Below, one piece after another: positions 1 to 31,735 of a stretch of 64,000 bases of DNA. Both the position numbers and the translations under genes were made by a program. Position 1 is the stretch's first letter. The number at the start of each line of letters is the position of its first letter. This DNA comes from an uncultured Desulfobacterales bacterium (GTDB taxonomy: Bacteria; Desulfobacterota; Desulfobacteria; Desulfobacterales; B30-G6): the NCBI GenBank assembly GCA_964452555.1, contig CAYVMI010000018.1:32329-96328 (forward strand), in the 5' to 3' direction. The notes beneath the pieces are model-generated. The model was not told where the DNA came from, did not search any database, and worked only from the letters and a program-made list of their open reading frames with translations.

Positions 1-643
1 CGTCGTCGTCCACGCCGCAAAGCCCCGGACAGCTGTCATCGTTCATGTCGCCGGGCGGATCTTCGTCCACATTGTTGTCGCCGTCATCGTCTATTCCGTT
101 AATAGGATCATCGTTCCGGCTGCTGCTCTCATCATCTGAATCCGACCCATCCCCTCCATCCACCTCGCCACTTCCGCTATCATCAATTAAATAAATGCCC
201 GCAACCGCATCATAATTCAGGTCATCGGAAACATCTTCATCCACCAGTCCATCCTTGTCGTCATCGGCATCCGGAATTCCGTCCTGGTTCAAGTCGATAT
301 AGAGCGGCAGGGCCACCGCCAATACCGCCGTGTATTTGGTGCTGTCGTCCGTGGGCGGCGTGGGGGGTACGGTTTCCTCACGGATATTTTCGGCCCAGTT
401 GGTGCTATCCTTGTCGTTCAGGGGCAGCTGGAGATAGCGGGTATGGCTCACCGCCTTGACCATGCGCTGCATGGCAAAACGGGCCTGCCGCGTGAGGGCG
501 TTGATCTCCCGGCTGCGGTCATAGGATTGCATGGCATGCCCCACCAGCTCGGACAAGCCCAGGACCAGTATGGCCCCCATACTGATGGCCGCCAGCAGTT
601 CGATCAGGGTCAAGCCATTGTTATTTTTGATTCCGTACCGCAT
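1..643 (-). CDS. Minor pseudopilin (prepilin-type N-terminal cleavage/methylation domain) followed by acidic thrombospondin-type-3-like repeats; N-terminal part only, C-terminus lies beyond window start
   Basis: Absent from ORF track because it runs off the edge. Own translation from ATG 643..641: MRYGIKNNNG-LTLIELLAAISMGAILVLGL (G/LTLIE motif + hydrophobic helix), later DLNQDGIPDADDDKDGLVDED and DDDGDNNVDEDPPGDMNDDSCPGLCGVDDD; frame open to position 1. Confidence 0.75.
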   Translation of the reverse strand, partial: MRYGIKNNNGLTLIELLAAISMGAILVLGLSELVGHAMQSYDRSREINALTRQARFAMQRMVKAVSHTRYLQLPLNDKDSTNWAENIREETVPPTPPTDDSTKYTAVLAVALPLYIDLNQDGIPDADDDKDGLVDEDVSDDLNYDAVAGIYLIDDSGSGEVDGGDGSDSDDESSSRNDDPINGIDDDGDNNVDEDPPGDMNDDSCPGLCGVDDD

Positions 644-732
644 GGATTTTGTGTTTGGTATTTCATGTTTTGTGTTTCGTGGTACGGGTTTGTGTTATGA
701 GTCTTAGCACCCCAACGTCATAACCACTGATT

Positions 733-812
733 GTCGTTCCCGCGGAAGCGGGAAACCAGACAGAGCCTCTCGCTAAAAGCTTATCCTGGATCCCCGATTT
801 CTCGGGGATGAC
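733..812 (+). repeat. Dual-hairpin REP-like element, copy A
   Basis: gtcgTTCCCGCggaaGCGGGAAaccag ... cctgGATCCCCGatttCTCGGGGATgac; same two-hairpin layout as 4149..4234. Track ORF 663..902 is just its translation (WFPASAGTT, VIPEKSGIQ). Confidence 0.8.
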
Positions 813-1027
813 AACCGGAGACGGCTGGGATGCTGTAAGCCATGTCCTGCAACCCGAATCCCGGAACTCGTAACCCGGAACTTGAATCCTACACCCCTTC
901 AAACCTCCACCCCTACAACCCTTTATGAAAGCCTAATAGCCTAAATCTTCTGTCTCCTGTCTTCTGACTCCCCAGGCCACCATAACCCAGAGCCTGCCGA
1001 AGGGCGACGGCGGCTGACTCCTGAATT

Positions 1028-1474
1028 CTATCTTTTCGTCAACGTCTCCATCCCCTCCAGCGTATTCTCTATCTGCACCCGCGCCCACAGCAGACCGTCA
1101 TCCACCCCGGTAAAGTTGTCGTCATCGGCATCGGCATTGTCGCCGTCATAGCGCGCCAGAAAAACCAATAGGCGCCGCTCGGTACCGGCGGCGTCCGAAT
1201 AGGCCGCCACAATCACACCCGGCCCGCCGGCTGCGTCAGCCGCTGCCTGCAGTTCATCGAAGGGCTTGGCCAGGACTTCCTCCAGTTTCCCGGATATGCG
1301 ATAATGGTCGACCGCTCGGATTTCGTGGATATCACCGCCTTGGACACCCCCGAATACCGCGCTGATGGCCGGTATCAAAGTCAGAGCAATTAGTATCACC
1401 GCCACCAGCACTTCCACATAGGAAAATCCTTTTTCTATTTTTAACCAATTAAAATTATTTGAAAAAAAATTCAT
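1028..1474 (-). CDS. Minor pseudopilin (GspI/PilV-like, prepilin-type N-terminal domain)
   Basis: Internal start of track ORF 1028..1633: MNFFSNNFNWLKIEKG-FSYVEVLVAVILIALTLIPAI; ATG 1474..1472 overlaps upstream stop as ATGA. Confidence 0.75.
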   Translation of the reverse strand: MNFFSNNFNWLKIEKGFSYVEVLVAVILIALTLIPAISAVFGGVQGGDIHEIRAVDHYRISGKLEEVLAKPFDELQAAADAAGGPGVIVAAYSDAAGTERRLLVFLARYDGDNADADDDNFTGVDDGLLWARVQIENTLEGMETLTKR

Positions 1475-2019
1475 TGCACCGTAACCCTCCCGCTGATGCC
1501 GTGCAAGGTTACCACACGGGATATGGCCCCGGCTGAAAAAGTTATGTCCAGCTGGTTCACCAGTACGTCTGACGGATCGGCACACCAGGGGGTGCCGTTG
1601 GCATCGAAATACGTATTGCCGGCGACGCTGCAATTTCCACGAAATGAAATTGCACGGTTTACACTTTCAGAATAGGCAAACCTATGCGAAGCCAGATCGA
1701 TGTCGTAGAGATTTTTACTTAAAGGATGGTAAACGTCGTATATCGGCGTCCAGGGATTGGTGGTGGTGTCCAGACGAAATACGCGGATGCGGGTGACTTC
1801 CGCGCCCGCTATATTTCGAAACCCAAAGGGCGCCCCCTGCTGCATGGCCAGGCTGCGGGCATAGCGCATGCTCTGCGCAAATTCTTCGGCCGCCAGCTCC
1901 AACTTGGCGTGGCCGCCGACCGAAAAACTGGGGATCGCCAACATGGCGGCGAACCCCAGGATAGTAATCACCAGCAGCAGCTCAACCAGACTCAGACCAG
2001 CCTGTGCAGGCGCCTTCAT
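1471..2019 (-). CDS. GspH/FimT-family pseudopilin
   Basis: MKAPAQAG-LSLVELLLVITILGFAAMLAIPSF prepilin motif; 182 aa; in pilin gene run. Confidence 0.8.
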   Translation of the reverse strand: MKAPAQAGLSLVELLLVITILGFAAMLAIPSFSVGGHAKLELAAEEFAQSMRYARSLAMQQGAPFGFRNIAGAEVTRIRVFRLDTTTNPWTPIYDVYHPLSKNLYDIDLASHRFAYSESVNRAISFRGNCSVAGNTYFDANGTPWCADPSDVLVNQLDITFSAGAISRVVTLHGISGRVTVQ

Positions 2020-2024
2020 GCCAT

Positions 2025-2573
2025 TTACAAGGTGTCGTGGGCACCGTTGTCGGCGGCAATGAGCACACCGGTTACGGGATAAAATTTCCAGCCAAAATCC
2101 TGCCCAGCCGAACTTCTGACCGTAATGTCGGCCTCGTCAAAATCGGCCGTGACATCTGTTTTATTGTTATACGGGTTTGTGGGCAGGGTTTGTTTTTTCA
2201 GGTAGGGTCCGTAAATGAATGCCCCTCCCTTAGTGTCTGCGGTCTGACCATCCACGTCCGTATACCGAGTCAATTGGGGCACGATGGCCGCGATGGCTTC
2301 GGCATCCGAGGCCGTGGCCGCCCCGTCGGTATGTTTGGTGGATCCGGGATACTTGCTGTCATGCTGATGGTAATAGAGCTCGACGGCATTGCGCAAGGCG
2401 CTCAGGTTGGTTGACAGCGTGTTGAGTTTGGCATCCTCGGTCGAAACCGCCACCTGCGGAATGATGATCATGGCCAGAATACCCAGCACGATCACGACAA
2501 TCAACATCTCGATCAGGGTAAAACCGGACTGTTTCCGTAGCAATCTCAACCCCTTGTCTATGGACGTTTTCAT
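2025..2573 (-). CDS. Major pilin / GspG-like pseudopilin
   Basis: MKTSIDKGLRLLRKQSG-FTLIEMLIVVIVLGILAMIIIPQ; start moved to ATG 2573 which has AAGGAG 9 nt upstream. Confidence 0.85.
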   Translation of the reverse strand: MKTSIDKGLRLLRKQSGFTLIEMLIVVIVLGILAMIIIPQVAVSTEDAKLNTLSTNLSALRNAVELYYHQHDSKYPGSTKHTDGAATASDAEAIAAIVPQLTRYTDVDGQTADTKGGAFIYGPYLKKQTLPTNPYNNKTDVTADFDEADITVRSSAGQDFGWKFYPVTGVLIAADNGAHDTL

Positions 2574-2675
2574 GACTTGTGTCTCCTTACACATACAGGT
2601 TTTCTTCCTTAAATCTCTCTGTAAATATATATCGGCAGTTTATTGAAATCCTTTAGTAAAAAAGTTAAAGGGTGG

Positions 2676-2836
2676 GAAGCAGGAGTCAGAAAACAGCAGG
2701 CTGTAGGCTGAAGACTGTTAGGCTGTTTGGCGCCAGATGTTGACCCGTAATCCGAAATACAAACCCGAAACTCGCAACACACAACCCGATTCTGAATTCT
2801 GACTCCTGAATTCTGTCTTCTGACGCCTGTTTTCTG
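2676..2836. repeat. Low-complexity word-tile spacer with inverted words (caggagtcag / ctgactcctg; aaaacagcagg / cctgttttctg) plus aggct- and aacccg-type tiles
   Basis: Read directly; words and their reverse complements occur within 160 nt between gspF-like stop and pilin start. Confidence 0.7.
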
Positions 2837-2843
2837 TTTCGAA

Positions 2844-3995
2844 TCAATGCAAGGCTTGCGATAACTTGAACAATGGCAAAATAATCGAAGAAACTATCAC
2901 CCCCACAATCCCTCCCATCACGATCAAGGCAATCGGCTCGATCAGGGAGGCAAATTTCTTTAATTCCTGTTCGATCTCCATATCGTAAAACCGGACCAGC
3001 CGCATGAGCACCTCCGGCAGCTTACCCGCCTCTTCACCGATGGCCACCATCTGTTTCACGGTTTGAGGAATATAGGCGTACGTGGCGAAAGGCTGGGAAA
3101 ACCGCCCACCTTGATCGATATGCGTGCGGATACGCTCAACAAATTGACGGTAGTACTGATTCCAAATGGTGGGACGGGTTACGTCCATGGCTTCCAGCAG
3201 GGGTACATGGCTGTCCATGAGGTATCCCAGGGTTCTTAGCATTTCGCAGGTATATATCTTGTTCGCCAGACCGGATATGAGCGGACCGCTGATTAATACT
3301 TTGTCCAATATGCGCCGCCCCCAGGGGCTTTTGACAAACAGCATACCCCCAAAAGCAATTCCGATACTACCCAGGATGTAAACCCACCAGTACAACCGTA
3401 ACGAATCGCTGGCAGCCATGAGCAAACGTGTGGATAGGGGCAATAGGTCTTCCTTGCCTTCAAAAAATGCCGTAAACTTGGGCAGCACCGCCACCAGCAC
3501 AAATACCACCACGATCATACCAAACAGCATCAAGACCCCCGGATAGGTCAAGGCAGAGCGCAGTTGGGTCATAACGGCCTGCCGCTTTTCCTGCATCTCC
3601 ACCACCCGATCCAGAATCTTTTTAAGAAATCCGCCGGTCTCACCGGCCCGAATCATGCTGACGGTCTGTTGGTTGAATATCTTGGGGTGGCCCTGCATGG
3701 CTTCCGACAATTGACGCCCGGCCTCGATCCTCCCCGCCATATCCAGGATTGCCGCTCGAAACATTGGATTTTGAACCTCTTCGGCCACAGACTTCAAGGC
3801 CACTGTCAGAGGGGTGCCGATTTCAAGCATTAAGGCCAGCTGCGTGTTGAAAAACATCACCTCCTTGGCTGTGGCGTGCTTTTTAAACCGCTCCAGGAGA
3901 TCGCCCTGCGTAAACCCGATCTTTGGCTTCTTGATTTTAGAACCGTTTAGTGCGGCCGTATTCACGGCACCATTTGTATTAAAATTGAGAGCCAT
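2844..3995 (-). CDS. Type II secretion/type IV pilus platform protein (GspF/PilC family)
   Basis: 383 aa, duplicated GspF-type domain, three hydrophobic segments, typical ...MIRAGETGG... and ...MVAIGEEAGKL... motifs. Confidence 0.9.
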   Translation of the reverse strand: MALNFNTNGAVNTAALNGSKIKKPKIGFTQGDLLERFKKHATAKEVMFFNTQLALMLEIGTPLTVALKSVAEEVQNPMFRAAILDMAGRIEAGRQLSEAMQGHPKIFNQQTVSMIRAGETGGFLKKILDRVVEMQEKRQAVMTQLRSALTYPGVLMLFGMIVVVFVLVAVLPKFTAFFEGKEDLLPLSTRLLMAASDSLRLYWWVYILGSIGIAFGGMLFVKSPWGRRILDKVLISGPLISGLANKIYTCEMLRTLGYLMDSHVPLLEAMDVTRPTIWNQYYRQFVERIRTHIDQGGRFSQPFATYAYIPQTVKQMVAIGEEAGKLPEVLMRLVRFYDMEIEQELKKFASLIEPIALIVMGGIVGVIVSSIILPLFKLSQALH

Positions 3996-4148
3996 AATAC
4001 TACTTTAGCCTTTTAGGTATTTAGACTGTAGGCAGTAGGCGTTCAACCGCCGAAGAGCCTATTAATTCTGCTTAATGCTTCATTTGCCTTAAGCTATAAG
4101 CAACTGTGGCATTTGCCTTAGTGCTTAAAGCTGAACTCGCCCCTTCCT

Positions 4149-4234
4149 GTCATTCCCTCGGAAGAGGGAATCCAGTCAACACCGTCTGCTAATAGCTAAA
4201 GGCTTTTCTGGATCCCCGATTGCTCGGGGATGAC
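4149..4234 (+). repeat. Dual-hairpin REP-like element, copy B
   Basis: gtcATTCCCTCggaaGAGGGAATccag ... ctgGATCCCCGattgCTCGGGGATgac; the first stem differs from copy A by a compensatory pair (G-C to T-A). Confidence 0.85.
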
Positions 4235-4405
4235 ATCCGTATGTTGGGATGTTCGATGTTAAAGCAGTTTATGCTGGATACTGCTTTAGCTTTTTAGGTG
4301 TTTAGACTGTAGGCTGTAGGCGTTTAACCGCCTAACAGTCAAAAAGTCTTCAGCCTAACAGCCTTGACTCCTGAATTCTGTCTTCTGACTTCTGTCTCCT
4401 GTCTC

Positions 4406-4615
4406 CTAAACTAACGATCTCGCCTTCTTCACATCCCCCACCAGCTCGATGTTGCCGCAGTCCAGACACATAAAACCTTTTACAGCCAAGTCGGCTGTCT
4501 GCATCGCAAAAAAATTGACGCTATCCGGTCGAAAATATACCCTGCCGGATGATTGAGCCTTACCCGCGGCCATTTTTTTGCTGCCGCATCGCAAACAAGA
4601 TTTTTGATCGGTCAT
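4406..4615 (-). CDS. Small zinc-ribbon protein (CxxC ... CxxC), function unknown
   Basis: 69 aa; CLRCGS ... CLDCGN pairs; isolated between two repeat-filled spacers inside the pilus operon. Confidence 0.5.
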   Translation of the reverse strand: MTDQKSCLRCGSKKMAAGKAQSSGRVYFRPDSVNFFAMQTADLAVKGFMCLDCGNIELVGDVKKARSLV

Positions 4616-4835
4616 GGTTGTTGTCTCTTTTCCTTGGTTTTTATTAATGTCGTATTCTCATTCCCCATTTTATCGAAATGAAAAGTAAAGGCCAGGATGC
4701 CGGATGCTTGATCCTTGATGCTAGTTGCTGGATGCTGGTCAACCCGCAACCCAATTCCCGTAACCCTTCACACCTCCAAACCTACACCCTCCAACCCTCT
4801 CTAACAGCCTAACAGTCTTCAGCCTAATAGCCTGG

Positions 4836-6542
4836 TTAAATGTCCAACGACGACACCCGATGCACCTCCTCAATCGTGGTCTGGTGCTCGAGCACCTTTT
4901 GATACCCCGCCGTCTTAAGACCGCGATATCCGTTGGTGTTACAGTGCTTTCGGATCTCATCGATGGTGGGATTCTCCAGGATCAGGGTTTGCAAATCCGC
5001 ATCCATGGTCAAGAGTTCATGGATGCCGGTCCGGCCTTTGAATCCGGAGTCGTAGCATGCGCGGCAGCCTTCACCCCGATACAGCTTTTGACGCTTTTTA
5101 GCATCGATTCCCAACGCGGTCATTTCAACCTCCGAGGGGAAATAAGCCGCTTTGCACTCCGGGCATATGGTCCGCACCAGACGCTGGGACAGAGCCGCCA
5201 GCAGAGACGACGACAGCAGATAAGGCTCGATCCCCATCTCCAGCAGCCGCGTGATGGAGCTGGGGCTGTCATTGGTATGCAAGGTGGAAAGCACCAGATG
5301 ACCGGTCAGCGAAGCCTGAATTGCGATCTCGGCTGTCTCCCGGTCGCGGATCTCCCCCACCATAATCACGTCCGGGTCCTGCCGCAGGGCATGCCGGATA
5401 AAAGTGGCAAACTTGAGTCCGATGGCCGCATTGACCTGGTTTTGGTTGATATCGGCGATCTGGTATTCCACCGGATCTTCCACCGTGATGATATTGCGCT
5501 CGGGAGTGTTCAGCAGCGAAACTCCTGAATACAGGGTCGTGGTCTTGCCGCTGCCGGTGGGTCCGCATACCAGGATGAGACCATGGGAAGACCGCACAAG
5601 CGATTTAAATGTTTCCAACAAATCTTCGTCGAAACCCAGGCTGTTCAAATCCAGGATCGCCTGGCTGCGATCGAGGATCCGCATGACCACCTTTTCACCG
5701 TATACCCCCGGCATGGATGAAAAGCGCAGATCCACCACTTTGCCGTCCGCCACCACCTGGATACGACCATCCTGGGGCAGGCGTCTTTCGGCAATATTCA
5801 GCTTGGACATGACTTTCAGCCTGGAAACCACGGCCGGATGCAGCTCGATTTTTTGGGGGCGCTGTTCATACAACATACCGTCCACGCGCACCCGAATACG
5901 TAAGCGGTCTTCCTGGGGTTCGATGTGGATATCGCTGGCGCCGTCTCGTATGGCACGCAACAAAATCAAATTGGCGAGATTGACGATGGGGCTGTCCTCA
6001 GCCATTTCTGCCAGTTCAGCTATTTCAGCCTCGGAACGCCCCTCCACCACATCGATGCTGGATTCATCGGCGCTGGACATGAGTTCATCGATGCTGGCAT
6101 CTCCCTGATAGGCCTGGGGAATCGCCTCTAAAATATCTTCGGAACGACAGATGACCGGCTGAACCTCAAGATTGGTTATTTTGCGCACTTCATCAAAAAC
6201 ATTAAACCCATAGGGGTCCGATGTTGCCAGGGTGATCACTCCGTTGACCACAAACATGGGCAGAACCTGGTAATGGAGGGCTTTTTCCTTGGGTAGAATT
6301 TGGACGATCTTGGGATCCACCAGGCCTTTGCGCAGCCAGACATGCGGAATCCCCATCTGCTCACCCAGGGCCTTGGACAGTTCCTCCTTGGTTAAGATGC
6401 CCTCATCGATCAGCAGCTGTCCTAAGGGTTTGCCGGTTTCCTTTTGCAGACGCAATAAGCTGGTTAGTTTTTCCGGTTCAACCTTGCCGCTTTGAACCAG
6501 AATTTCCCCCAGCTTCCTTCTTTTTTTGATGATGCGCGTCAT
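4836..6542 (-). CDS. GspE/PilB/MshE-family secretion ATPase with N-terminal MshEN-type c-di-GMP-binding domain
   Basis: 568 aa; Walker A GPTGSGKTTT, Asp/His boxes, tetracysteine CPECK...CRAC; N-terminus carries two 24-residue MshEN-like motifs (see findings). Confidence 0.95.
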   Translation of the reverse strand: MTRIIKKRRKLGEILVQSGKVEPEKLTSLLRLQKETGKPLGQLLIDEGILTKEELSKALGEQMGIPHVWLRKGLVDPKIVQILPKEKALHYQVLPMFVVNGVITLATSDPYGFNVFDEVRKITNLEVQPVICRSEDILEAIPQAYQGDASIDELMSSADESSIDVVEGRSEAEIAELAEMAEDSPIVNLANLILLRAIRDGASDIHIEPQEDRLRIRVRVDGMLYEQRPQKIELHPAVVSRLKVMSKLNIAERRLPQDGRIQVVADGKVVDLRFSSMPGVYGEKVVMRILDRSQAILDLNSLGFDEDLLETFKSLVRSSHGLILVCGPTGSGKTTTLYSGVSLLNTPERNIITVEDPVEYQIADINQNQVNAAIGLKFATFIRHALRQDPDVIMVGEIRDRETAEIAIQASLTGHLVLSTLHTNDSPSSITRLLEMGIEPYLLSSSLLAALSQRLVRTICPECKAAYFPSEVEMTALGIDAKKRQKLYRGEGCRACYDSGFKGRTGIHELLTMDADLQTLILENPTIDEIRKHCNTNGYRGLKTAGYQKVLEHQTTIEEVHRVSSLDI

Positions 6543-6907
6543 GATCTCTTGTGGGCCAGGGCTTCGTTGATATCCTTGTAAACAAACAGTATGTTAATAA
6601 TGCGCGTGGCCAAAAGAATATCCCGACAGACTTCATTCAGGCCGGCGATTTTAAGGGCACCCCCATTCTGCATTAGATTATCATGGGTTTCCACCAGCAA
6701 CTCCAAAGCCGCGCTGTCCAGGTGATCCACCTTTTTTAAATCCAGGATGATTTCTGTATGGCCGGCGTATATTTTCTCCTTGATTTTTTTATCTAGGTTC
6801 TCACAATTTTCCCAGGTGATCGATTGCTTCAGGGCCAGAGCCGCACGCCCGTCGATATTAACGCTTTTGACGGAATCCCCCTCCTGAGCTTGTGGTTTAG
6901 TTGGCAT
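6539..6907 (-). CDS. STAS-domain protein (anti-sigma-factor-antagonist fold)
   Basis: Internal start of track ORF 6539..7252: MPTKPQ...ILDLKKVDHLDSAALELLVE...GGALKIAGLN; GGAGAGGTG SD upstream of ATG 6907; stop overlaps ATPase start (ATGA). Confidence 0.85.
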   Translation of the reverse strand: MPTKPQAQEGDSVKSVNIDGRAALALKQSITWENCENLDKKIKEKIYAGHTEIILDLKKVDHLDSAALELLVETHDNLMQNGGALKIAGLNEVCRDILLATRIINILFVYKDINEALAHKRS

Positions 6908-8417
6908 AAGACACCTCTCCCACCAGGTAGCCGGCCTCATCCACGATTTGGCTAAATACGGACACAATCTTGGGATCCAACTGACTGCCGGCCACTTCTT
7001 TAACGATAGACAAAGCTTTGTATAATGATTTGGCCGACCGGTAGGACCGGGTGGAACTGATGGCATCGAAAGTGTCGGCCACTGCGATAATTCGGGCTGA
7101 TAGGGGAATCTGCAGACGGGCCAGACCGCTTGGATATCCGTTGCCGTCATAACGTTCATGGTGATGCAGGATGCCGGGCAGAGACTCCACCAACTGTTCC
7201 ACCGGCTTGAGAATCTCAAATCCCTTGGCCGGGTGGTCTTTGACAACCTCAAACTCCTCCTCGGTCAATTTGCCGGGTTTGTTCAGAATGGTCTCCGGGA
7301 TACCGATTTTGCCGATATCGTGTAAAATTGAGGCCCAGCGAAGCGCCTCCAGTTCACCACCCTGCATACCCAATTTCCTCCCTATTTGCATGGAATACTG
7401 GGAAACGCGCTCAGAATGACCCCGGGTGTAAACGTCTTTAGCCTCGATGGCAAAGACCAGCGACTTGACCATGTTGATGATAAATACTTCCAGGTCCTGG
7501 TACAGGTTGGTGTTTGCAATCACTACACTTAACTGTTCAGCCAGAGAAACCAAAAGCTGCAATTCACCCTGGCGGAAAATTTCATTCATATTAAAGGATA
7601 CCAGCCCCAGCCAGCCATAGAATCCTTCTTCATGGTCGATCCGGACTGCCAGGAAACGGAACTCTGTCTGGGAGAATGATCGGTAGACCGGATTTGAACC
7701 GGATCGATTGACTATAAAATACTTGTCTCCGGTTGAGATAATCTCCTCGGGGATGGAATCAATCAGCCTGTGATAGAAACTCATATCTTCCCTTAGGTGA
7801 TCATCAAGGTTAGGTTGAGCAACCAGCGTATTGTATTCGGGACTATCGTTTAAGATAGCAAAGGCAGCATCTGAACGCAGGTTGATCAGCAAACTTTTGA
7901 TCAAGCTTTCCAGCATTGTGTTGGAAAATTTCAGCGTCTTGATCTGCGATGCGATTTTACCGTAAAGGAAAAGATCTTCAAAAGACTGGTCCAGCTCTTC
8001 GGCCAGGTCATTGACCTCTTCCCGCGCCTCCCAGCTTTCCTGAAGCAGCTTGGCCAAACTACCCAGAAAATTTTCCATCTCCATGGCATGTTGCCAAACA
8101 CGGGGGTCGTCAGATGCCTCCGTGGCCTGGGTACGGCTCTCATCCTCATAAGCGATCAAGGTTCCAAAGGGACCTTTTCCGTTGGACAATGGATACCCGC
8201 ACATGAATTGGCGGCCGTTATATAGGTCATGCTGATAGCGATTTTCCCTCAACACAATTTTAGACAAACCTTGAATCGCTTGGTTAAAGCTTGGATCCGT
8301 ATCATTCTGCTCCGGGTCGGGATACAGCATATGGCCGTTAAGATCCCATACCTGATAATGTAGTTGACTGATGGGTGTCAGATTTGTCAGAAATTCTTTC
8401 AGCTCGGTCAATTCCAT
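6897..8417 (-). CDS. HD-GYP c-di-GMP phosphodiesterase with N-terminal sensory (GAF-like) region
   Basis: HSERV...LHDIGKIGIP...HHERYDGNGYPSGL motifs. Confidence 0.9.
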   Translation of the reverse strand: MELTELKEFLTNLTPISQLHYQVWDLNGHMLYPDPEQNDTDPSFNQAIQGLSKIVLRENRYQHDLYNGRQFMCGYPLSNGKGPFGTLIAYEDESRTQATEASDDPRVWQHAMEMENFLGSLAKLLQESWEAREEVNDLAEELDQSFEDLFLYGKIASQIKTLKFSNTMLESLIKSLLINLRSDAAFAILNDSPEYNTLVAQPNLDDHLREDMSFYHRLIDSIPEEIISTGDKYFIVNRSGSNPVYRSFSQTEFRFLAVRIDHEEGFYGWLGLVSFNMNEIFRQGELQLLVSLAEQLSVVIANTNLYQDLEVFIINMVKSLVFAIEAKDVYTRGHSERVSQYSMQIGRKLGMQGGELEALRWASILHDIGKIGIPETILNKPGKLTEEEFEVVKDHPAKGFEILKPVEQLVESLPGILHHHERYDGNGYPSGLARLQIPLSARIIAVADTFDAISSTRSYRSAKSLYKALSIVKEVAGSQLDPKIVSVFSQIVDEAGYLVGEVSYAN

Positions 8418-8794
8418 TAGGTGGTTTCCCCATTGTATGCTTGTATATTCTGTAATATTTCCATTGGGCTGAATGGCTTTTCCAGTAATATGGTATCTTG
8501 CAGCTCTTTGACCCAGATAATGTCTTGCGGATCTATACGGGCGGTCACCACGATGGTCAGAAAAGGTTTCTCCTTTTTAAGCGGGTTGGTTCGAATGCAA
8601 AGCGTTTTGCCGTCCATTATGGGCATATTGATGTCGGTTATGACCACATGGGGCCGGTTCTCTTGAATCAATTCCAGAGCTTCCTGCCCGTTTTTGGCCA
8701 TGACTACCCGCATACCCTGCTTTTTGAGTTTGATTTCCAAAACCCGGCGGATATGGGCTTCATCGTCTACTATAAGTGCCGTTTTAATCGTCAA
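8417..8794 (-). CDS. Single-domain response regulator (CheY-like receiver)
   Basis: ALIVDDE...VVITDINMPIMDG...; I prefer the TTG start at 8794 (GGAGGA 8 nt upstream, 11-nt overlap with kinase) over track ATG 8851 (68-nt overlap). Confidence 0.8.
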   Translation of the reverse strand: MTIKTALIVDDEAHIRRVLEIKLKKQGMRVVMAKNGQEALELIQENRPHVVITDINMPIMDGKTLCIRTNPLKKEKPFLTIVVTARIDPQDIIWVKELQDTILLEKPFSPMEILQNIQAYNGETT

Positions 8795-10634
8795 TGTAGT
8801 ATTCCTCCATGGGAATGCTAATGATAAAATAGGTGCCTTTTCCGAGTTCACTTTTTACGTCGATCCTGCCACCATGCAGGTTGATAATCTCTGCAGCAAT
8901 GCATAATCCCAAGCCGGTACCTTGATTATCCTGAACCTTGGGATTGGACGAACGATAGAATTTATCGAAAATGTGATCCAGATCTTCCTGGGACATGCCG
9001 TAACCGGTATCGCTGATATCAAAAATGATATTGCCGCCCTCTTTCCGCAAGCCGAAGTCGATCACACCCTTTTGGGGCGTGTATTTAACCGCATTTCCGA
9101 GTATGTTGATAATGGCCCCCTTGAGCAGCTCTTTATCCCCCATAAAAACCGGGAAATTGTCAGGTGCATGACGCTCGATGGCGATCCCCTTTTTCTTGGC
9201 GCTGCCTTGCACCGAGACTAGACAATCCGTAAACAGCGAATCGGATTTAACAATATCTTTACTCAATGTAAGGCTGCCCATCTCGATTCTTGAGAGGTTC
9301 AGTAAATCTTTGATCAACCGCGATAGTCTCTTGGTTTCCTTGTTGATGGTATTAAAAAATTCCTTTTGGGTCTCAACATCCTCAATTTCACCTTCCATCA
9401 ACATTTCGCTGTAGGATTGAATGGTCGTCAGCGGTGTCATGATCTCATGCGACAAGTGGGCCACAAAAGCGATGGTATTTTTTTCCGCGTTTTTCTGGGT
9501 GGTAATATTGTTGAACGTAATTAAACTACCCGAAGAATGATTGTCTGCTCCGGTTAACGGCGTACAGGTGACTGAAAAGACATCTGTCTCCGAAAGCTCC
9601 GTAAGGGATAGCTCCACATGGTTTTGGGCCCGCAGCTGTTCTAGGCTGCCTTGTTGCGAAATGAAATGCACCAGAGCTGAATTGGAAAAAACTTCCTCAA
9701 AAGGCCGGTCGATCATATCGCGCCGAGTTTTGCCCAGATGCATCAACAGATAGTCATTGATGTGAACCACGCAGCCTTGAATATCGATAATCATGATGCC
9801 GTAATTAATGGTATTGAGAATATCGACGATCTGCCTTTTTTCATATTTGACGACACCCACCTGGGAGGCCAGACCCTTGTTATTTCCCTCGATTTTTTTG
9901 AGCTGTTTTTTCAATCGCACCAAAGCCACATGAAAATCTTTAATCATGCCATCAATGCTACCGATGCCGAAGGCCCGGGCCAACTCGTTTTTGGTCCGAC
10001 GCCGCGATGATTTGGGCACCAACTTGGAAACGGTCCCCCGGAGCGGCTTGACTGCCTGAAGGATGCCGTATTGGAATATGATGACGACGGCGGTAATAAA
10101 AAAGAAAAGCATCCCCAACAGGCTGATCCTTTCCTTGGTAAATAGGGATAGCGGCTCGAGCATCAGTCCGATATTAACGGTACCGGCCCGCTCCCCGTTT
10201 TCGAAAATCGGTTTTGAAAAGTCGAAAAGCCGGGCATCGTTATCTGTAAACTCAAAGGGTGAAAACACCAGCCCGGCCGCTTTTACCCTGCTTGAGTTTT
10301 GATCATTCTTGATGGCCAAATTGACCTGGGGCAGCCTAAAGGAAACCAATGTGGCCCCCGATCGATCGACAATGTGACAGTATGCCAGTCCTTCCTTGGT
10401 GGAATACTCCATCAGGGTTCTCACGAAGAAATCATGTTCCTTCTCAAAGGTTGCCATCGGTTGTAAGGCGATCAAGCTGACCAGGTGGTTGCCTTTGGTA
10501 TAGACTTCCTGGACCCGCTCCTTATTTTCGGTCCTGAGTTGAAAATTGGTTATAACAAATAGGCCCGAGAAAATGAGTAATATGAGAAAAAAATTGATGG
10601 CTTTTGTTTTCAGCACGTCGATGCTTCCCTTCAT
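8784..10634 (-). CDS. Membrane sensor histidine kinase (two TM segments, extracytoplasmic domain, PAS, HisKA, HATPase_c)
   Basis: H-box FVAHLSHEIMTPL, G-boxes DTGYGM and GTGLGL; start moved to MKGSIDV (ATG 10634, AAGGTGGTG upstream). Confidence 0.9.
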   Translation of the reverse strand: MKGSIDVLKTKAINFFLILLIFSGLFVITNFQLRTENKERVQEVYTKGNHLVSLIALQPMATFEKEHDFFVRTLMEYSTKEGLAYCHIVDRSGATLVSFRLPQVNLAIKNDQNSSRVKAAGLVFSPFEFTDNDARLFDFSKPIFENGERAGTVNIGLMLEPLSLFTKERISLLGMLFFFITAVVIIFQYGILQAVKPLRGTVSKLVPKSSRRRTKNELARAFGIGSIDGMIKDFHVALVRLKKQLKKIEGNNKGLASQVGVVKYEKRQIVDILNTINYGIMIIDIQGCVVHINDYLLMHLGKTRRDMIDRPFEEVFSNSALVHFISQQGSLEQLRAQNHVELSLTELSETDVFSVTCTPLTGADNHSSGSLITFNNITTQKNAEKNTIAFVAHLSHEIMTPLTTIQSYSEMLMEGEIEDVETQKEFFNTINKETKRLSRLIKDLLNLSRIEMGSLTLSKDIVKSDSLFTDCLVSVQGSAKKKGIAIERHAPDNFPVFMGDKELLKGAIINILGNAVKYTPQKGVIDFGLRKEGGNIIFDISDTGYGMSQEDLDHIFDKFYRSSNPKVQDNQGTGLGLCIAAEIINLHGGRIDVKSELGKGTYFIISIPMEEYYIDD

Positions 10635-11052
10635 TTGAACACCACCTTGATGTGGCAACTTTTAATTAGCCGATGCATTAAATGCCGGTCGCATGCCCGC
10701 ACATGGATATCCTGTGCTATGGTTCTATATCGGCCAACGCACCAGATTCTTTAGTTTTTCTTTATAAAACCATAAAATCGTCGGGTGATTTTATTTTTTC
10801 TAAAGCTTTGTGATATTTTTCCGATATTAAAAACGTAAACCTAAATTTGCTATAGCTTGTCTCAAAATGAAGCTATGAATCTCTGGCAACGCATAGGAGA
10901 TTCCAGCCTGTTAGGTTATTAGGCTATGCCGGACAAGCGAAAAAAGGAGCTTACTCCGGGCATGTGAGCATTTGAACTGCTCTGCAATCCCGCCTAAACC
11001 GGGATCAGGGGGACCTTATTTTTTGTGAGGTTGGCTATAGAAGGAGCATGTT

Positions 11053-11874
11053 GTGAACGATCGTAATCGAACCAAGCTGACCACCATGGAGGTTCTGACT
11101 ATCATATTTTTTTCGTTGATATGCACCATCATCATGGACCACTTGGATGCATATGAGCGTCTGCAGTTGTTCATTATCGAAAATAATATATCTGTGTTTG
11201 ACGAATTCATTGTTTTCTTTCCGGCATTCATAGCCATGGGATTCATCCTGTTTTCAACTAAGCGAGTACAGGAACTAGGCTCGGAAGTTATGCGCAGACA
11301 GAAAGCGGAAGCGGCCTTAGTTGAAAGTGAAAAAAAATACCGCGAACTCAGCATCACAGACGGACTGACCGGGCTCTATAACCAACGGCACTTCTACCAT
11401 CGTCTGGACGCTGAGATTGATCGGGCGCAACGCTATTCAATACCTTTGACCGTTCTCTTAATGGACGTGGATGACTTTAAGCTATTCAATGATACCTATG
11501 GTCATCTGGACGGAGATAAGGTTCTCAAAGAAATTGGCCGCATCATCCACGCCTTTATTCGCAGGTCGGATTCTGCCTTCCGTTATGGCGGCGAGGAATT
11601 CGTCGTTATCATGCCGGAAACAAATGGCAGCAGCGCTCATACGGTGGCAGATCGAATACGCGAAGGCTTTAAACAGCACATTTTCATCACCCACAATAAA
11701 TCAGCCGAACAATTAACCCTGAGCTTGGGTATAGCCGAATGTAATCCCGGTGAAGATTCCCGCACCCTTGTAAAAAGGGCTGATTTCAACATGTACTGCG
11801 CCAAGAAAAACGGCAAAGACCAAATCTGTTATTCCAACCAGGATCCCAACCTCAAACATGCCATCGGATTTTAG
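11053..11874 (+). CDS. Membrane-anchored diguanylate cyclase (GGDEF)
   Basis: GTG start with AAGGAG 6 nt upstream; active site RYGGEEF with RxxD I-site (RRSD) five residues upstream; two N-terminal TM helices. Confidence 0.9.
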   Translation: MNDRNRTKLTTMEVLTIIFFSLICTIIMDHLDAYERLQLFIIENNISVFDEFIVFFPAFIAMGFILFSTKRVQELGSEVMRRQKAEAALVESEKKYRELSITDGLTGLYNQRHFYHRLDAEIDRAQRYSIPLTVLLMDVDDFKLFNDTYGHLDGDKVLKEIGRIIHAFIRRSDSAFRYGGEEFVVIMPETNGSSAHTVADRIREGFKQHIFITHNKSAEQLTLSLGIAECNPGEDSRTLVKRADFNMYCAKKNGKDQICYSNQDPNLKHAIGF

Positions 11875-13661: not shown

Positions 13662-13868
13662 ATGCAAACAGTTACTGTATCGCCGAAATTTCAGGTCGTT
13701 ATACCAAAGGTCATTCGTGAGGCTATGCAGATCCGTCCCGGCCAAAAGTTAAAAATCATCGAGTATGATGGACGAATCGAATTAATCCCAGAAAAGGACA
13801 TCGTAGAATTACAAGGATTTCTTAAAGGTATTAATACGAATTTCATTCGAGAGGACGACCGCCTATGA
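13662..13868 (+). CDS. vapB: AbrB/SpoVT-fold antitoxin (VapB-type)
   Basis: MQTVTVSPKFQVVIPKVIREAMQIRPGQKL; 4-nt overlap with the PIN gene. Confidence 0.8.
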   Translation: MQTVTVSPKFQVVIPKVIREAMQIRPGQKLKIIEYDGRIELIPEKDIVELQGFLKGINTNFIREDDRL

Positions 13869-14242
13869 ATATTGTGGATTCCTCGGGATGGCTTGAATAC
13901 TTTTCAGACGGCTTCAATGCAGAGTATTATAAGCAACCGCTTCAAAATCCTTCTGACTTGATCGTTCCATCCATAACTATTTACGAAGTTTTTAAGGTTG
14001 TTCTACGCGAAGCCGATGAAAAAAATGCACTGCTATCCATAGCTGCCATGCAAAAAGGAACGGTTGTTGATTTAAATCCCAGCATTGCCATCAATGCTGC
14101 CAAGCTGAGTCTTAATCATCATCTCCCTATGGCGGACAGCATTATATTAGCCACTGCAAAAAAGTATGACTGTCTTATTTGGACTCAGGATTCCGATTTT
14201 AAAAATCTACCAAATGTTAATTATTTTCCGATTAAAAAATAA
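13865..14242 (+). CDS. vapC: PIN-domain ribonuclease toxin (VapC)
   Basis: IVDSSGWLEY ... ADSIILATAKK ... WTQDSDF acidic PIN residues. Confidence 0.85.
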   Translation: MNIVDSSGWLEYFSDGFNAEYYKQPLQNPSDLIVPSITIYEVFKVVLREADEKNALLSIAAMQKGTVVDLNPSIAINAAKLSLNHHLPMADSIILATAKKYDCLIWTQDSDFKNLPNVNYFPIKK

Positions 14243-14561: not shown

Positions 14562-15527
14562 TTAGAGCTCTTCGATCGCTTCCGTCAACTCCGGCAGAAA
14601 ATCGAGGATGTCGGCTTCGATGCCCACATCCGCCACCTGAAAAATAGGGGCCTTGGGATTTTTATTGATGGCCACGATAAAGGGATTGCCTTTGATCCCG
14701 CCCAAATGCTGGAAGGAGCCGCTGATCCCGCAGGCCAGGTAAACCTTGGGCTTGACCGTCTGGCCGCTCGTACCCACCTGCCGTGATTTTTCCAGCCATT
14801 TGGCGTCTACGATGGGACGCGAACAGCTCACTACGGCACCCATGGCCTTGGCCAGGTCTTCGGCGATTTCAATATTGTCTTCGTCTTCGATGCCGCGACC
14901 AATGGATACCAGCACATCCTCTTTGGTAATATCCACGTCACCTACTTCTGCCACCACGGTTTCAAGGTAGGTCCGCTTGGTGGACAAATCACCGGCTTCC
15001 CCGGATTTATCTACCACCTGGCCGGAAGCGCTTTTGCTTTCATCCGGTTGAAATGCCCCGGGCCTTACATTGACAACGGCTCCGGCGGCAATATCACAGG
15101 TTACATGGGTGCTGACCGCACCGCCATATTCCTGGCGCACGCATTTGAGAACCGAACCGTCCATGCCCTCAAATCCGACCACATCGGCCACAAAAGCCGA
15201 GTCCATTTTAATGGAAAGACCCGGTGCCAGATCCATACCAAAAGTATCGTGGGGCACCAAAAGCGTGCCATCGGCAGGCAATATGTTTAGTAAAACATTG
15301 CGGATGATTTCAGCATTGGGGTATGCCAGGGCCTCGTTTTCCACCTTCCAAACCTCGGCATAAGATGCCGCCAGATCATTGCAGAGCGCTTCGATCCCCG
15401 AACCCACGACTATGGCTGTGGGCGCTGCACCGGCATCGAGCTGTTTGGCCGCAGTTACCAGCTCCAGAGCTGAATCATCAGGGACCCCGTCCTTATACGT
15501 AATATAACTAAAAATCTGTCCTGACAT
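14562..15527 (-). CDS. etfA: Electron transfer flavoprotein alpha subunit
   Basis: 321 aa; C-terminal FAD-binding signature ...YLACGISGSFQHLGG... Confidence 0.95.
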   Translation of the reverse strand: MSGQIFSYITYKDGVPDDSALELVTAAKQLDAGAAPTAIVVGSGIEALCNDLAASYAEVWKVENEALAYPNAEIIRNVLLNILPADGTLLVPHDTFGMDLAPGLSIKMDSAFVADVVGFEGMDGSVLKCVRQEYGGAVSTHVTCDIAAGAVVNVRPGAFQPDESKSASGQVVDKSGEAGDLSTKRTYLETVVAEVGDVDITKEDVLVSIGRGIEDEDNIEIAEDLAKAMGAVVSCSRPIVDAKWLEKSRQVGTSGQTVKPKVYLACGISGSFQHLGGIKGNPFIVAINKNPKAPIFQVADVGIEADILDFLPELTEAIEEL

Positions 15528-16318
15528 TATTTGAGCCCTCCTTTGGCCTTGAGTAGTTCAATCAGTTTCTCAACGATCTCTTCGGTACTGCCTTCCAGCA
15601 TCTCAGCACCTTCTCCCAGCTCCGGAACGAAATAGTCCAACCGTTTGACACCGGCACCGGCGGCGCCGACGGCCTCGGCCGCCAGCCCCAGGTCTCCGGG
15701 ACCATGCACTGGGATATCAATGGATGCAACCTTGCGGATGCCGCGGATACCGACATAGCGCGGTTCGTTGATACCGGTCTGGATGGAAAGTACGCAAGGC
15801 AAAGTTATTTCACTCATTTCCTGGTTGCCGCCTTCGATTTCCCGCCCAATCTTAAGCTTTTTGTCATCAACGACCTCTATGGCGTTGACCAGCGATGCAT
15901 AGGGCACATCCAACATGGCCGCCAGCATGCCACCCACCTGACCGGCACCGTCGTCAGCCTGGGCTCCGGTCAAAATCAGGTCGTAATTACCTTTTTCCAC
16001 AGCGGCCTTCAGGATGGATGCAATGCCTTTACCATCGGAGTCTTCAAAGGCATCATCGGAAAGCAGCAGGCCGTTGTCGGCACCCATAGCCATTTCGCGC
16101 CGGACCACCTCTTCGGATTCCTCATCACCCACCGAAACCACGGTGACGCTGCCGCCTTTGTCATCCCGGATCTGGATGGCTTCCTCTACGGCATAATTGT
16201 CCCATTCATTGACCGAATATACCAGATCATCAGTTTCAATCCCGCTGCCGTCGCTGTTGACCTCGATTTCATTCTCTGCTGTATCCGGTACTCTTTTGAC
16301 ACATACCAAGATTTCCAT
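15527..16318 (-). CDS. etfB: Electron transfer flavoprotein beta subunit
   Basis: MEILVCVKRVPD... typical EtfB N-terminus; TAATG junction with etfA. Confidence 0.95.
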   Translation of the reverse strand: MEILVCVKRVPDTAENEIEVNSDGSGIETDDLVYSVNEWDNYAVEEAIQIRDDKGGSVTVVSVGDEESEEVVRREMAMGADNGLLLSDDAFEDSDGKGIASILKAAVEKGNYDLILTGAQADDGAGQVGGMLAAMLDVPYASLVNAIEVVDDKKLKIGREIEGGNQEMSEITLPCVLSIQTGINEPRYVGIRGIRKVASIDIPVHGPGDLGLAAEAVGAAGAGVKRLDYFVPELGEGAEMLEGSTEEIVEKLIELLKAKGGLK

Positions 16319-16390
16319 GTCCTACCTCCCATGATTTAATGTAGTTCTTTTTCTATTTGGAAGTCATATTTTTAACCGATCATATACCCA

Positions 16391-16543
16391 CTAAGGGTTC
16401 CAGGAGTCAAGGATCCAAGGGGTCGAGTGAACAAACAAATCGCTGTGAGCTTTTTGCTTTAAGCTGCAAGATAAGGAGCCAAGAGCTAAAAACGAAGAGC
16501 TTATCACTTGAATCCTCGGCTCCTTGAATCCTCGAATCCTTAG
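16391..16543. repeat. Word-tile inverted arms in the etfB / FeS-oxidoreductase spacer
   Basis: ctaagggttccaggagtcaaggatccaagg (16391..) versus cttgaatcctcggctccttgaatcctcgaatccttag (..16543); both arms end in ctaagg/ccttag. Confidence 0.75.
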
Positions 16544-16556
16544 ACCATCAGATCCT

Positions 16557-18659: not shown

Positions 18660-18841
18660 TAATTTTTTTCCTTCATTGCATTGAACGATGATTCATTTGT
18701 AGCTATATTGTAACCAAACCGTCGATATCATAAAAGCATCAACCGGGCAAGTCCCCATAAAAAACTGCGCCAAGTTCAGCTTTCTATTGAAAATTGCCGA
18801 ATTATACTTTTAAGATCCGGTCTACAGCTGCAAGTTACAGT

Positions 18842-18969
18842 GGCCTGATGTGGGCAATTGTCGAGGTTGCCGTAGCTACAAGGAAGATGCTGTTTCGCTA
18901 TAGTGTACTATGCGGGATGGCATCTGACGCAGTAGATGCGGTAAGATCGGCAATCCCGTAGGGTTTCAG
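18842..18969 (+). repeat. Rod-like structured repeat, copy 2
   Basis: About 14 mismatches over roughly 113 nt relative to copy 1 (aligned by eye); same orientation. Confidence 0.8.
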
Positions 18970-19054
18970 ATTTTAAGAAATTAAATGATTAGAATCCTAA
19001 TTGTTATATAATTTCTATCGATTATTCTTAAAATCTGAAATGCTCCCATTAGGC

Positions 19055-22550: not shown

Positions 22551-22633
22551 AAAGTAGTTAACTGTTAAGGAGTAAAATCAGATAACAAGAAGCTATAGGC
22601 GCCTAACAGTCTTCAGCCTAATAGCCTATCGGC

Positions 22634-29253: not shown

Positions 29254-29672
29254 CCGACTTTGAACCGACCATTATCGCATTTTGCTGTGATTACTGAGGA
29301 TATTCGGCCGCGGACCTGGCAGGTTCCATGCGACTCGATTATCCGGCAAACATCAAGATTATCCGTGTGCCCTGCACCGGAAAAGTAGACGTAATGTATC
29401 TCCTCAGATCGATCCAAAAAGGCGCCGACGGCGTGTATGTGGTCGGCTGTCTGGAGGGGACTTGTCATTATAAGGAAGGCAACTTCAGGGCCCGCGAGCG
29501 GGTCAATTATGTGCGCTCGCTCCTGGAGGAAATAGGCCTTGAAGCTGATAGGGTTAGAATGTATAATCTCTCTTCTGGCGAAGGGCCGACGTTTGCGGCT
29601 TATGCCAGGGAAATGACGGAAAATATCAAGGCGCTGGGTCCCAATCCCATCAAGGAAAAGGACCAAGCCTAA
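29250..29672 (+). CDS. mvhD: MvhD/VhuD-like protein, selenoprotein with UGA-Sec at 29295..29297
   Basis: ATG 29250 overlaps the HdrL stop (ATGA). [25 protein letters not shown] matches the FCCNWC motif with Sec at the third Cys. Same frame as track ORF 29328..29672. Confidence 0.85.
29312..29327 (+). promoter_or_regulatory. Candidate SECIS hairpin for the mvhD UGA
   Basis: ggacc-uggca-gg(u)ucc with bulged U, 14 nt after UGA. Confidence 0.45.
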
Positions 29673-29687
29673 AACGGAGGAACAATT

Positions 29688-31007: not shown

Positions 31008-31015
31008 GAGGAAAC

Positions 31016-31687: not shown

Positions 31688-31735
31688 CAGGTCTCATGGA
31701 GTGAATGACCTCATATACGACATAAGGTGATGCAT

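Follow-up and report, generated by a model that had tools for sequence, protein, structure and literature searches.

Few regulators are, to our knowledge, established for the motors of type IV filaments: cyclic di-GMP (c-di-GMP) acting through the MshEN domain, the PilZ-FimX pair, and Hfq and EbsA in cyanobacteria. A locus from an uncultured Desulfobacterales bacterium raises the question of whether a STAS domain protein should be added to this list. The locus lies within a stretch of 64,000 nucleotides (nt) of assembly GCA_964452555.1 (contig CAYVMI010000018.1, positions 32,329 to 96,328 of the forward strand), which is referred to here as the window and from the first letter of which all coordinates are counted. 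On the minus strand of this window, genes for a sensor histidine kinase, a receiver (REC) protein, an HD-GYP protein, and a STAS protein run directly into the gene for a PilB-like assembly ATPase, followed by genes for a platform protein and a set of pilins. We consider it somewhat probable that this row encodes a PilB-like motor that is partnered by the STAS protein and placed under the joint control of the kinase-REC pair and of c-di-GMP. A filament machine and a c-di-GMP-sensing ATPase are both known; the STAS partner and the kinase cassette, found in two phyla and repeatedly fused, are new.

An earlier note on this DNA, made from the sequence alone, had described this gene order along with a divergently oriented gene for a GGDEF cyclase, and had claimed overlaps of 1-11 nt at every junction among the signaling and ATPase genes. 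We checked the window genes with a list of open reading frames (ORFs), Pfam, NCBIfam, and a junction script, and the order, the coordinates, and the divergent gene were all confirmed. From kinase to ATPase, the successive overlaps are 11 nt (kinase/REC), 1 nt (REC/HD-GYP, TAATG), 11 nt, and 4 nt (ATGA), as had been claimed. The same organism is also represented in a separate Logan assembly, where the gene calls are identical.

A STAS protein and its tie to the motor ATPase

The STAS gene (6539-6907, minus strand) encodes a single-domain protein of 122 amino acids (aa) that matches PF01740 with 49.3 bits, against a cut-off of 22.6. The adjoining gene (4836-6542, minus strand) encodes the PilB-like assembly ATPase, which aligns with the T2SSE profile (PF00437, 453 bits) over positions 2-370 of 370 and carries an MshEN domain (60 bits). 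The ATGA overlap between the two genes is more than chance, because it recurs in 13 distinct unfused loci of the Desulfobacterota type; it is also present in one Phycisphaerales genome.

The pairing was followed from both sides. A scan of a genome collection seeded with the ATPase yielded 80 PilB-like loci, with 40-47% identity among the matches listed. As an orthologue set these loci were rejected, given the generic Walker and Asp-box patterns and this level of identity, and they served as an outgroup, with neighborhoods of about 10 kb screened for STAS genes by phmmer and a STAS profile. Among the matches listed, a STAS gene lies directly upstream of the ATPase gene in 11 of the 80 loci, all 11 from Planctomycetota; around the other 69 PilB/GspE-like loci, the STAS profile detected no such gene over about 10 kb. 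The reverse test, in which metagenomes were scanned from the STAS side by means of a sequence pattern, returned 13 loci, every one of which has the ATPase directly downstream. In a neighbor-joining tree of 81 PilB/GspE-like ATPases, the STAS-linked proteins of Desulfobacterota and Planctomycetota form one clade. Judged by these sequence comparisons, the ATPase of the window belongs to a distinct clade that is found in these two phyla and has a dedicated STAS partner. The named members of the Desulfobacterota branch are all proteins from metagenome-assembled genomes and bear generic labels ('PilB', 'TadA', 'T2SS/T4P/T4SS family ATPase').

The two proteins also occur as one. A search seeded with the fusion protein P0058 identified STAS-MshEN-T2SSE fusions of 680-708 aa in seven distinct 90%-identity clusters, the six others being 57-63% identical to P0058. 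Every fusion is a single uninterrupted ORF that was encountered in several samples, and one of the clusters was recovered from contigs of three independent samples. In a second neighbor-joining tree, of 60 clade members, the fusions appear at no fewer than four separate positions among the unfused proteins. All of them share the same architecture, with a linker of approximately 10-25 residues that joins the C-terminus of STAS to the first MshEN motif. Fusions of this kind are classic Rosetta-stone evidence, and they suggest that the STAS protein acts on or beside the c-di-GMP-binding N-domain of the motor. We infer that it serves the N-terminus of the ATPase as a dedicated partner and that the two are probably in physical contact. 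A STAS partner of the motor had been proposed in the earlier note, and the recurrent fusions lend this proposal strong independent support.

The STAS subfamily itself is small and distinct, because, of the 1201 matches that an exhaustive phmmer search of 1.84 billion representative proteins gave at E <= 1e-3, no more than 55 reached E <= 1e-10. Its closest relatives of known structure are the anti-sigma-factor antagonists TM1442, TM1081, and SpoIIAA. The score against TIGR00377 is 45.7, below the cut-off of 53.45, and the similarity to the MlaB model is weak (22 bits against a 90-bit cut-off). An Asp-Ser pair (Asp64-Ser65 in the window protein) is invariant in 23 of 23 aligned STAS sequences, the fusions included. 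We take this pair to align with Ser58 of SpoIIAA, the phosphoserine position. No RsbW-type kinase (HATPase_c_2), PP2C/SpoIIE-type phosphatase, or sigma factor was called within 10 kb in the Desulfobacterota relatives L083-L094.

The filament machine and the c-di-GMP motif of its motor

Downstream of the ATPase gene, the window encodes a PilC/GspF platform protein (2844-3995, minus strand; T2SSF, 174 bits, two repeats) and four prepilin-like proteins. The gene for the major prepilin (2025-2594, minus strand) probably starts at 2573, which gives a product of 182 aa, the length also called in the independent assembly. Its leader ends in KQSG after 17 residues, the mature protein begins with FTLIEM, and it has an N_methyl match and a GspG-like N-terminal helix; the resemblance to GspG is confined to that helix (54.6 bits against a cut-off of 88.85). 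A minor pilin follows (1471-2019, minus strand) with matches to N_methyl and GspH, both weak, and then a minor pilin-like protein (1028-1474, minus strand) that has a prepilin motif, G/FSYVE, and no family match; the latter weakly matches the third pilin gene of loci L088 and L091. In the search for pseudopilins, this weak GspH similarity was found in the one minor pilin, and GspI, GspJ, and GspK were not recognized. The fourth prepilin-like gene (1-637, minus strand; N_methyl, 24.5 bits) is cut by the edge of the window; its homologue in L085 (E = 3e-17) is the fourth pilin there, a protein of 290 aa. After its N-terminal helix, this protein has a long Asp-rich stretch, including DDDKDGLVDEDVSDD and DDDGDNNVDEDPPGD, which resembles calcium-binding repeats and has no Pfam match. 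In L088, L091, and L083, the position of the fourth pilin is taken by proteins of the NHL-repeat or PKD type, about 800 aa in length.

The earlier note had found no secretin, PilMNOP components, or prepilin peptidase here. Indeed, no homologues of PilM, PilN, PilO, a PilP-like protein, or a secretin were detected in the window, and the same holds for a second T2SSE ATPase, PilT included; a sample of 10 ORFs from other parts of the window, all of them metabolic or unrelated, contained no prepilin peptidase. The lack of PilMNOP and secretin genes is explained by the window ending inside the fourth pilin gene, and the machine should not be considered incomplete. Across relatives at 66-84% ATPase identity, PilMNOP-secretin genes come after the conserved block. 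In those with 66-70% ATPase identity, the pilin genes are followed by genes for PilM, PilN, PilO, a PilP-like protein of about 170 aa, and a secretin, sometimes with a gene for a large NHL-repeat protein between the pilins and PilM. The L093 cluster stops right after the secretin, with unrelated genes on the opposite strand next, and the system can therefore be delineated as a complete unit of 10-15 genes. This unit has neither its own prepilin peptidase nor PilT. By comparison with the relatives, a complete system of the type IV pilus kind appears to be split by the edge of the window: its upstream half lies inside, and the PilMNOP-secretin half is predicted beyond position 1.

The component proteins, with PilB-, PilC-, and GspE-type calls judged against the NCBIfam equivalog and subfamily cut-offs, point to a divergent machine. 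The ATPase has Walker A (GPTGSGKT, residues 327-334), an Asp box, Walker B, a His box, and a Cys4 zinc site, which together make up the T2SSE core; the sequences mapped after Walker A are DPDVIMVGEIRD (389-400), TGHLV (413-417), and CxxC at 460 and 493. It falls below the equivalog cut-offs of both GspE (TIGR02533, 595 bits against 630) and PilB (TIGR02538, 588 bits against 676). Over the full length, its nearest relatives in the Protein Data Bank are PilF of Thermus and then PilB of Geobacter and Myxococcus, all ahead of GspE. The platform protein is likewise below the GspF and PilC equivalog cut-offs, with 258 and 236 bits against 700 for the PilC models. The L085 secretin scores best against PilQ (216 bits, cut-off 284), followed by GspD (185, cut-off 351) and the MshL model TIGR02519 (156, cut-off 250). 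PilM of the relatives reaches 119 bits, just below its cut-off of 133. By Pfam, the relatives have PilM_2, PilN, and PilO in place of GspC, GspL, and GspM, and T2SSM_b only overlaps the PilO gene. PilT is absent from the Desulfobacterota clusters examined, and a PilT-like ATPase adjoins the motor in the Gimesia locus L021. We classify the machine as divergent and type IVa-like, more akin to type IVa pili than to type II secretion, because PilF/PilB are nearest to the ATPase, the secretin is best matched by PilQ, and the platform consists of PilM, PilN, and PilO. The earlier note had suggested a pilus or type II secretion-like machine, an idea that an ATPase grouping with ordinary GspE would have countered; the filament system stands, the ATPase does not group with ordinary GspE, and the likeness to type II secretion gives way to one with the type IVa pilus.

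ATPases of the MshE type bind c-di-GMP through two MshEN motifs of 24 residues separated by a 5-residue spacer (PMC5013675). In the window ATPase, the tandem motifs occupy residues 10-33 and 39-62, with the spacer KETGK, and the NCBIfam model of the c-di-GMP motif, NF053729, is matched with 52.8 bits against a cut-off of 38. The protein fits 21 of 22 scored positions of the relaxed motif (PMC5013675, Wang et al. 2016), and we propose that its MshEN domain binds c-di-GMP. The motif is conserved throughout the STAS-linked clade. It was rejected as a clade-specific trait, being common in the outgroup.

The signaling cassette and proposed control of the motor

The kinase gene (8784-10634, minus strand) encodes a membrane protein with a predicted helix, a loop of about 145 aa, a second helix, and PAS, HisKA (His396), and HATPase_c domains (Pfam); in a motif check, the H-box was intact. 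The REC-only, CheY-like response regulator (8417-8794, minus strand; Response_reg, 74.5 bits) is a product of 125 aa with a TTG start, called identically in the independent assembly, and has the complete acceptor set: the DD pair, Asp54, Thr84, and Lys106. The predicted HD-GYP phosphodiesterase (6897-8417, minus strand) matches HD_5 (PF13487, 135 bits) over positions 6-170 of 170. Its sequence contains His334, His366-Asp367, His395, His418-420, GYP at 427-429, and Asp448, all the catalytic motifs expected of a c-di-GMP phosphodiesterase, and this catalytic part is 45% identical to the HD-GYP protein of the Planctomycetota locus L006. The N-terminal region of about 320 aa is a predicted sensor, with weak GAF matches in relatives (for example, to GAF_2 in L088), and a BLASTP comparison of this region with the N-terminal region of the Gimesia GAF-GGDEF protein revealed no homology. 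The divergent diguanylate cyclase gene (11053-11874, plus strand) encodes two predicted membrane helices and a GGDEF domain (Pfam, 160 bits), with GGEEF at residues 179-183 and an RxxD I-site five residues upstream, the canonical spacing.

This block is not a quirk of the window genome. Relatives with 66-94% ATPase identity keep the kinase, REC, HD-GYP, STAS, ATPase, PilC, and pilin genes, and in loci at 84%, 83%, 70%, and 66% identity, the gene order is the same and the junctions overlap. In three fusion lineages, the cassette is the same up to the ends of the contigs, and the core of kinase, STAS, and ATPase recurs in Planctomycetota; the prediction of synteny in the earlier note was thus borne out, for the whole block down to 66% ATPase identity and for the core in the second phylum. 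A kinase gene is located upstream of STAS in every relative with a sufficiently long contig, except for L047, which has only a REC gene there. Among the 11 STAS-ATPase loci of Planctomycetota, nine have a kinase upstream, and the REC gene and the HD-GYP (or GGDEF) gene are variably present. Pfam scans of four of these nine kinases found HisKA and HATPase_c in each, to which the two from Phycisphaerae (L003 and L005) add PAS; these two match the window kinase in domain layout and length.

The enzymes of c-di-GMP turnover are less constant. HD-GYP is absent from the P0121 lineage (kinase, REC, and a STAS-ATPase fusion), from L099 (kinase, STAS, and ATPase), and from several Phycisphaerae, and in the Gimesia locus L021, it is replaced by a GAF-GGDEF enzyme. 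The divergent GGDEF gene was found in L083, L084, L095, and L096, is missing from L085, L088, L092, and L093, and is kept only at 83% ATPase identity or above; it is a lineage-specific neighbor outside the conserved core. That constant core consists of the sensor kinase, STAS, and ATPase, usually with REC, and HD-GYP is an accessory that is frequent in Desulfobacterota. Of the gating by local c-di-GMP turnover envisaged in the earlier note, the link of the motor to c-di-GMP gains support from the intact MshEN motif of the ATPase, which passes NF053729; HD-GYP is an accessory, and the divergent cyclase is confined to close relatives. In L092, a locus of a fusion lineage, an additional REC-HDOD-HD protein is encoded just upstream of the cassette (4269-5588), possibly a further link to c-di-GMP signaling.

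In the mechanism that we propose, the membrane kinase, with its intact motifs, would sense an envelope or redox cue, either extracytoplasmic or PAS-borne, and phosphorylate the REC protein. Because the REC protein is devoid of a DNA-binding or other output domain, its phosphorylated form would act by protein-protein contact and hence post-translationally. Gene order suggests as its target the adjacent, coupled HD-GYP protein where one is present, the STAS-ATPase unit, or both. The HD-GYP protein would lower the local c-di-GMP level, opposed in the genus of the window by the divergent GGDEF cyclase, and the N-domain of the ATPase would read that level, by analogy with MshE. The STAS protein, situated beside the MshEN N-domain as fusion, adjacency, and clade membership imply, would be an adaptor or gate that passes the phosphorelay signal on to motor assembly or activity, a role similar to that of PilZ, which bridges FimX to the PilB N-domain in Xanthomonas. 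We infer both the direction of regulation and the target of phosphorylated REC. A broader version, in which STAS is an obligate regulatory subunit throughout this pilus-like motor clade, the kinase-REC pair gates the ATPase through it, and the c-di-GMP enzymes are optional, is plausible, if somewhat short of an even chance.

Several observations weigh against the STAS-partnered motor as outlined here. The contact between STAS and the ATPase is deduced from fusion, adjacency, and clade coherence, not from experiment or structure. AlphaFold2 models of the fusion P0058, computed for the full length and for the N-terminal 280 aa, give predicted local distance difference test (pLDDT) values of approximately 75-89 for the STAS and MshEN domains; the linker is below 50 and the predicted template modeling scores are 0.44 and 0.51, so the models carry no information on docking. 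The neighbor-joining trees have no support values. Relative to the strict motif, RLGxx(L/V/I)(L/V/I)xxG(L/V/I)(L/V/I)xxxxLxxxLxxQ, present twice with a 5-residue spacer, the ATPase has Lys10 and Pro39 in place of Arg and a Lys at the hydrophobic position 11 of motif I, which makes its affinity for c-di-GMP uncertain. Moreover, the MshEN motif is equally common in the outgroup PilB-like ATPases, and c-di-GMP sensing is therefore best viewed as a known trait that came down with this ATPase family; the novelty of the system lies elsewhere. The absence of HD-GYP from L093, L099, and L005 means that c-di-GMP turnover is not obligatory in the cassette. A single transcript is not assured either, because repeat-filled gaps of 220-410 nt part the ATPase, PilC, and pilin genes of the window. 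Finally, the invariant Asp-Ser pair hints at phosphorylation of the serine by a kinase encoded elsewhere, which the proposed mechanism does not explain.

This last point leads to a different reading, in which STAS is the phosphorylation-dependent output of a partner switch, similar to HmpV: the state of Ser65 would depend on a Ser kinase and a PP2C phosphatase encoded elsewhere, STAS would bind the ATPase in one of its two forms only, and the local kinase and REC protein would control nothing but HD-GYP. The conservation of the pair at the SpoIIAA Ser58 position in all 23 sequences and the proximity to SpoIIAA-type antagonists fit this scheme, as does a report on Nostoc (PMC6495340), where a STAS output with an undefined effector operates in the hormogonium and motility machinery alongside type IV pilus motor genes. 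Yet genes of the HATPase_c_2 and SpoIIE families are absent from the surrounding 10 kb in the relatives examined, lineages that lack HD-GYP still have the kinase and REC genes directly before the STAS-ATPase unit, and the Asp-Ser conservation could be structural; we regard this scheme as unlikely. From the same kinship with SpoIIAA/RsbV-type antagonists, one might take STAS for an ordinary anti-sigma-factor antagonist controlling the transcription of pilus genes, which sits next to the motor gene by operon hitch-hiking. This is highly improbable in view of the independently recurring in-frame fusions, the adjacency that is exclusive in both directions and across two phyla, the coherence of the ATPase clade, and the lack of an anti-sigma kinase or sigma factor nearby in the relatives.

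A further alternative concerns the machine and not its regulator: it might be a functional type II secretion system, in which a short pseudopilus exports the NHL-repeat, PKD, and Asp-rich proteins and the cassette gates secretion. Relatives encode large exported-looking proteins inside the cluster, the N-terminus of the major pilin is GspG-like and one minor pilin GspH-like, and neither the Desulfobacterota clusters nor the window contain PilT. This alternative appears doubtful, because PilM, PilN, and PilO stand where GspL, GspM, and GspC would be expected, the secretin is matched better by PilQ (216 bits) than by GspD (185), and the full-length ATPase is nearer to PilF/PilB than to GspE and below the GspE equivalog cut-off. 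In addition, the PilT-like ATPase of L021 adjoins the motor, and the NHL beta-propeller, with its place behind the minor pilins, is reminiscent of tip proteins of the PilY1 type.

The STAS-partnered motor, if real, has implications beyond this locus. A STAS protein that is welded to the ATPase in two phyla, and was fused to it at least four times, adds a regulator of the motor and would link partner-switch-type proteins to filament assembly. Binding of STAS to the motor ATPase would then represent a general mode of control of type IV filaments, and the motor ATPase would become a candidate effector for STAS outputs that so far lack a defined one, such as cyanobacterial HmpV. The cassette also defines a widespread pilus or secretion system of sediment Desulfobacterota and Planctomycetota that has so far been annotated only generically.

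Neighboring features and comparison with known systems

The gaps within the pilus gene row of the window contain dispersed repeats. One intergenic block lies at 663-1027, the same motifs fill 2595-2843, 3996-4405, and 4616-4835, and further copies are found at 22609-22626 and 47516-47556, all on the minus strand. The repeats, GGCTNTTAGGCTGAAGAC (five copies), CAGAAGACAGAATTCAGGAGTCA (three), and GTCATCCCCGAGMAATCGGGGATCCAG (two), with 0 expected by chance, adjoin minus-strand genes, mostly no more than about 60 nt downstream of a stop codon, and they keep the ATPase, Cys4 ORF, PilC, and pilin genes farther apart than in relatives, where these gaps measure 16-160 nt. A role as structured terminators was rejected, since only one of the four stretches folds unusually well (4290-4410, z = -3.5). 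Scans of the window for sigma-70 promoters and terminators, a sigma-54 motif search, and Rfam gave nothing above chance. In L083 and L084, relatives at 83-84% ATPase identity, a Y1_Tnp transposase (IS200/RAYT-like) is encoded between the GGDEF gene and the kinase gene (4684-5652 and 4605-5567, respectively); such an enzyme could be the mobilizer of the intergenic repeats of the window.

Between the ATPase and PilC genes lies a Cys4 ORF (4406-4615, minus strand; 69 aa, CxxC...CxxC) with no Pfam or NCBIfam match. It had been listed in the earlier note as a Zn-ribbon member of the operon. The ORF is present, but it looks like an accessory and a recent insertion into the operon: homologues were found only in the closest relatives, L084 and L095-L097 (at least 84% ATPase identity), and the ORF sits within about 1 kb of dispersed repeats where the gap in other relatives is 16-160 nt.

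The remainder of the window holds other genes. A MazE/AbrB-like antitoxin and PIN-domain toxin pair (13662-14242, plus strand; Pfam) is encoded between the genes for leucyl aminopeptidase and the electron transfer flavoprotein (ETF). The region 14562-20878 encodes the alpha and beta subunits of ETF, a membrane Fe-S/CCG oxidoreductase, and an acyl-CoA dehydrogenase, and that at 25342-32680 starts with a flavin/Fe-S oxidoreductase of 1303 aa, HdrA-like, followed by genes that, as read from sequence, seem MvhD-, HdrB/C-, and MetF-like; both appear to be blocks for energy metabolism of a kind usual in anaerobic Desulfobacterota. A hybrid histidine kinase (36952-38586, plus strand), which combines a MASE11 membrane sensor with a C-terminal receiver, is unrelated to the pilus cassette.

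A survey of the published literature for links between STAS and PilB, GspE, MshEN, or type IV pili found nothing relevant except the Hmp system of Nostoc. Among known filament machines, the type IVa pili of Geobacter, Myxococcus, and Thermus provide the best matches to the ATPase and share the inner-membrane and secretin set found in the relatives of the window. The window system differs from them in that all its components fall below the NCBIfam cut-offs, the Desulfobacterota clusters have no PilT, and the pilin combines a leader of 17 residues with an N-terminus like that of GspG. Regulation differs too, with PilS and PilR in type IVa pili as opposed to a sensor kinase, a REC-only protein, and STAS in the window. 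The mannose-sensitive hemagglutinin (MSHA) pilus with its motor MshE is similar in having a T2SSE ATPase with an MshEN domain, the assembly activity of which c-di-GMP enzymes are expected to tune. Its locus is not known to have a STAS, kinase, REC, or HD-GYP gene before mshE; gene order and the PilM, PilN, and PilO components also set the two systems apart, and the L085 secretin is below the MshL cut-off.

Precedents for single parts of the cassette come from elsewhere. MlaB, a single-domain STAS protein, is an obligate accessory subunit of MlaF, the ATPase of an ATP-binding cassette transporter; that ATPase family and machine are unrelated, and the STAS protein of the window is nearer to the SpoIIAA type. 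In systems of the RpfC/RpfG type, an HD-GYP phosphodiesterase is under the control of a sensor kinase, with a receiver domain as the link, whereas in the window, REC and HD-GYP are encoded by separate, coupled genes and the HD-GYP protein has its own N-terminal region of about 320 aa.

Two systems come closest to the arrangement as a whole. In the HmpU-W system of Nostoc punctiforme, hormogonium development and motility require a signaling module that has the STAS protein HmpV as its output, with an undefined effector (PMC6495340, citing Riley et al. 2018); as a precedent for a STAS output connected with motility by type IV pili, it comes closest. HmpV has a kinase and a phosphatase of its own, and no link or fusion to pilB is reported, whereas the STAS protein of the window has neither enzyme nearby and its gene is coupled to that of the ATPase. 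In function, the closest analogue is the PilB-PilZ-FimX complex: in Xanthomonas citri, PilZ bridges FimX to the PilB N-domain (PMC8389850), which is the role that we propose for STAS together with REC and HD-GYP. The resemblance is one of function and implies no homology, the Xanthomonas system using an adaptor of the PilZ fold and FimX with GGDEF and EAL domains, and the window system an adaptor of the STAS fold, HD-GYP or GGDEF enzymes, and a separate REC protein under the control of a kinase.

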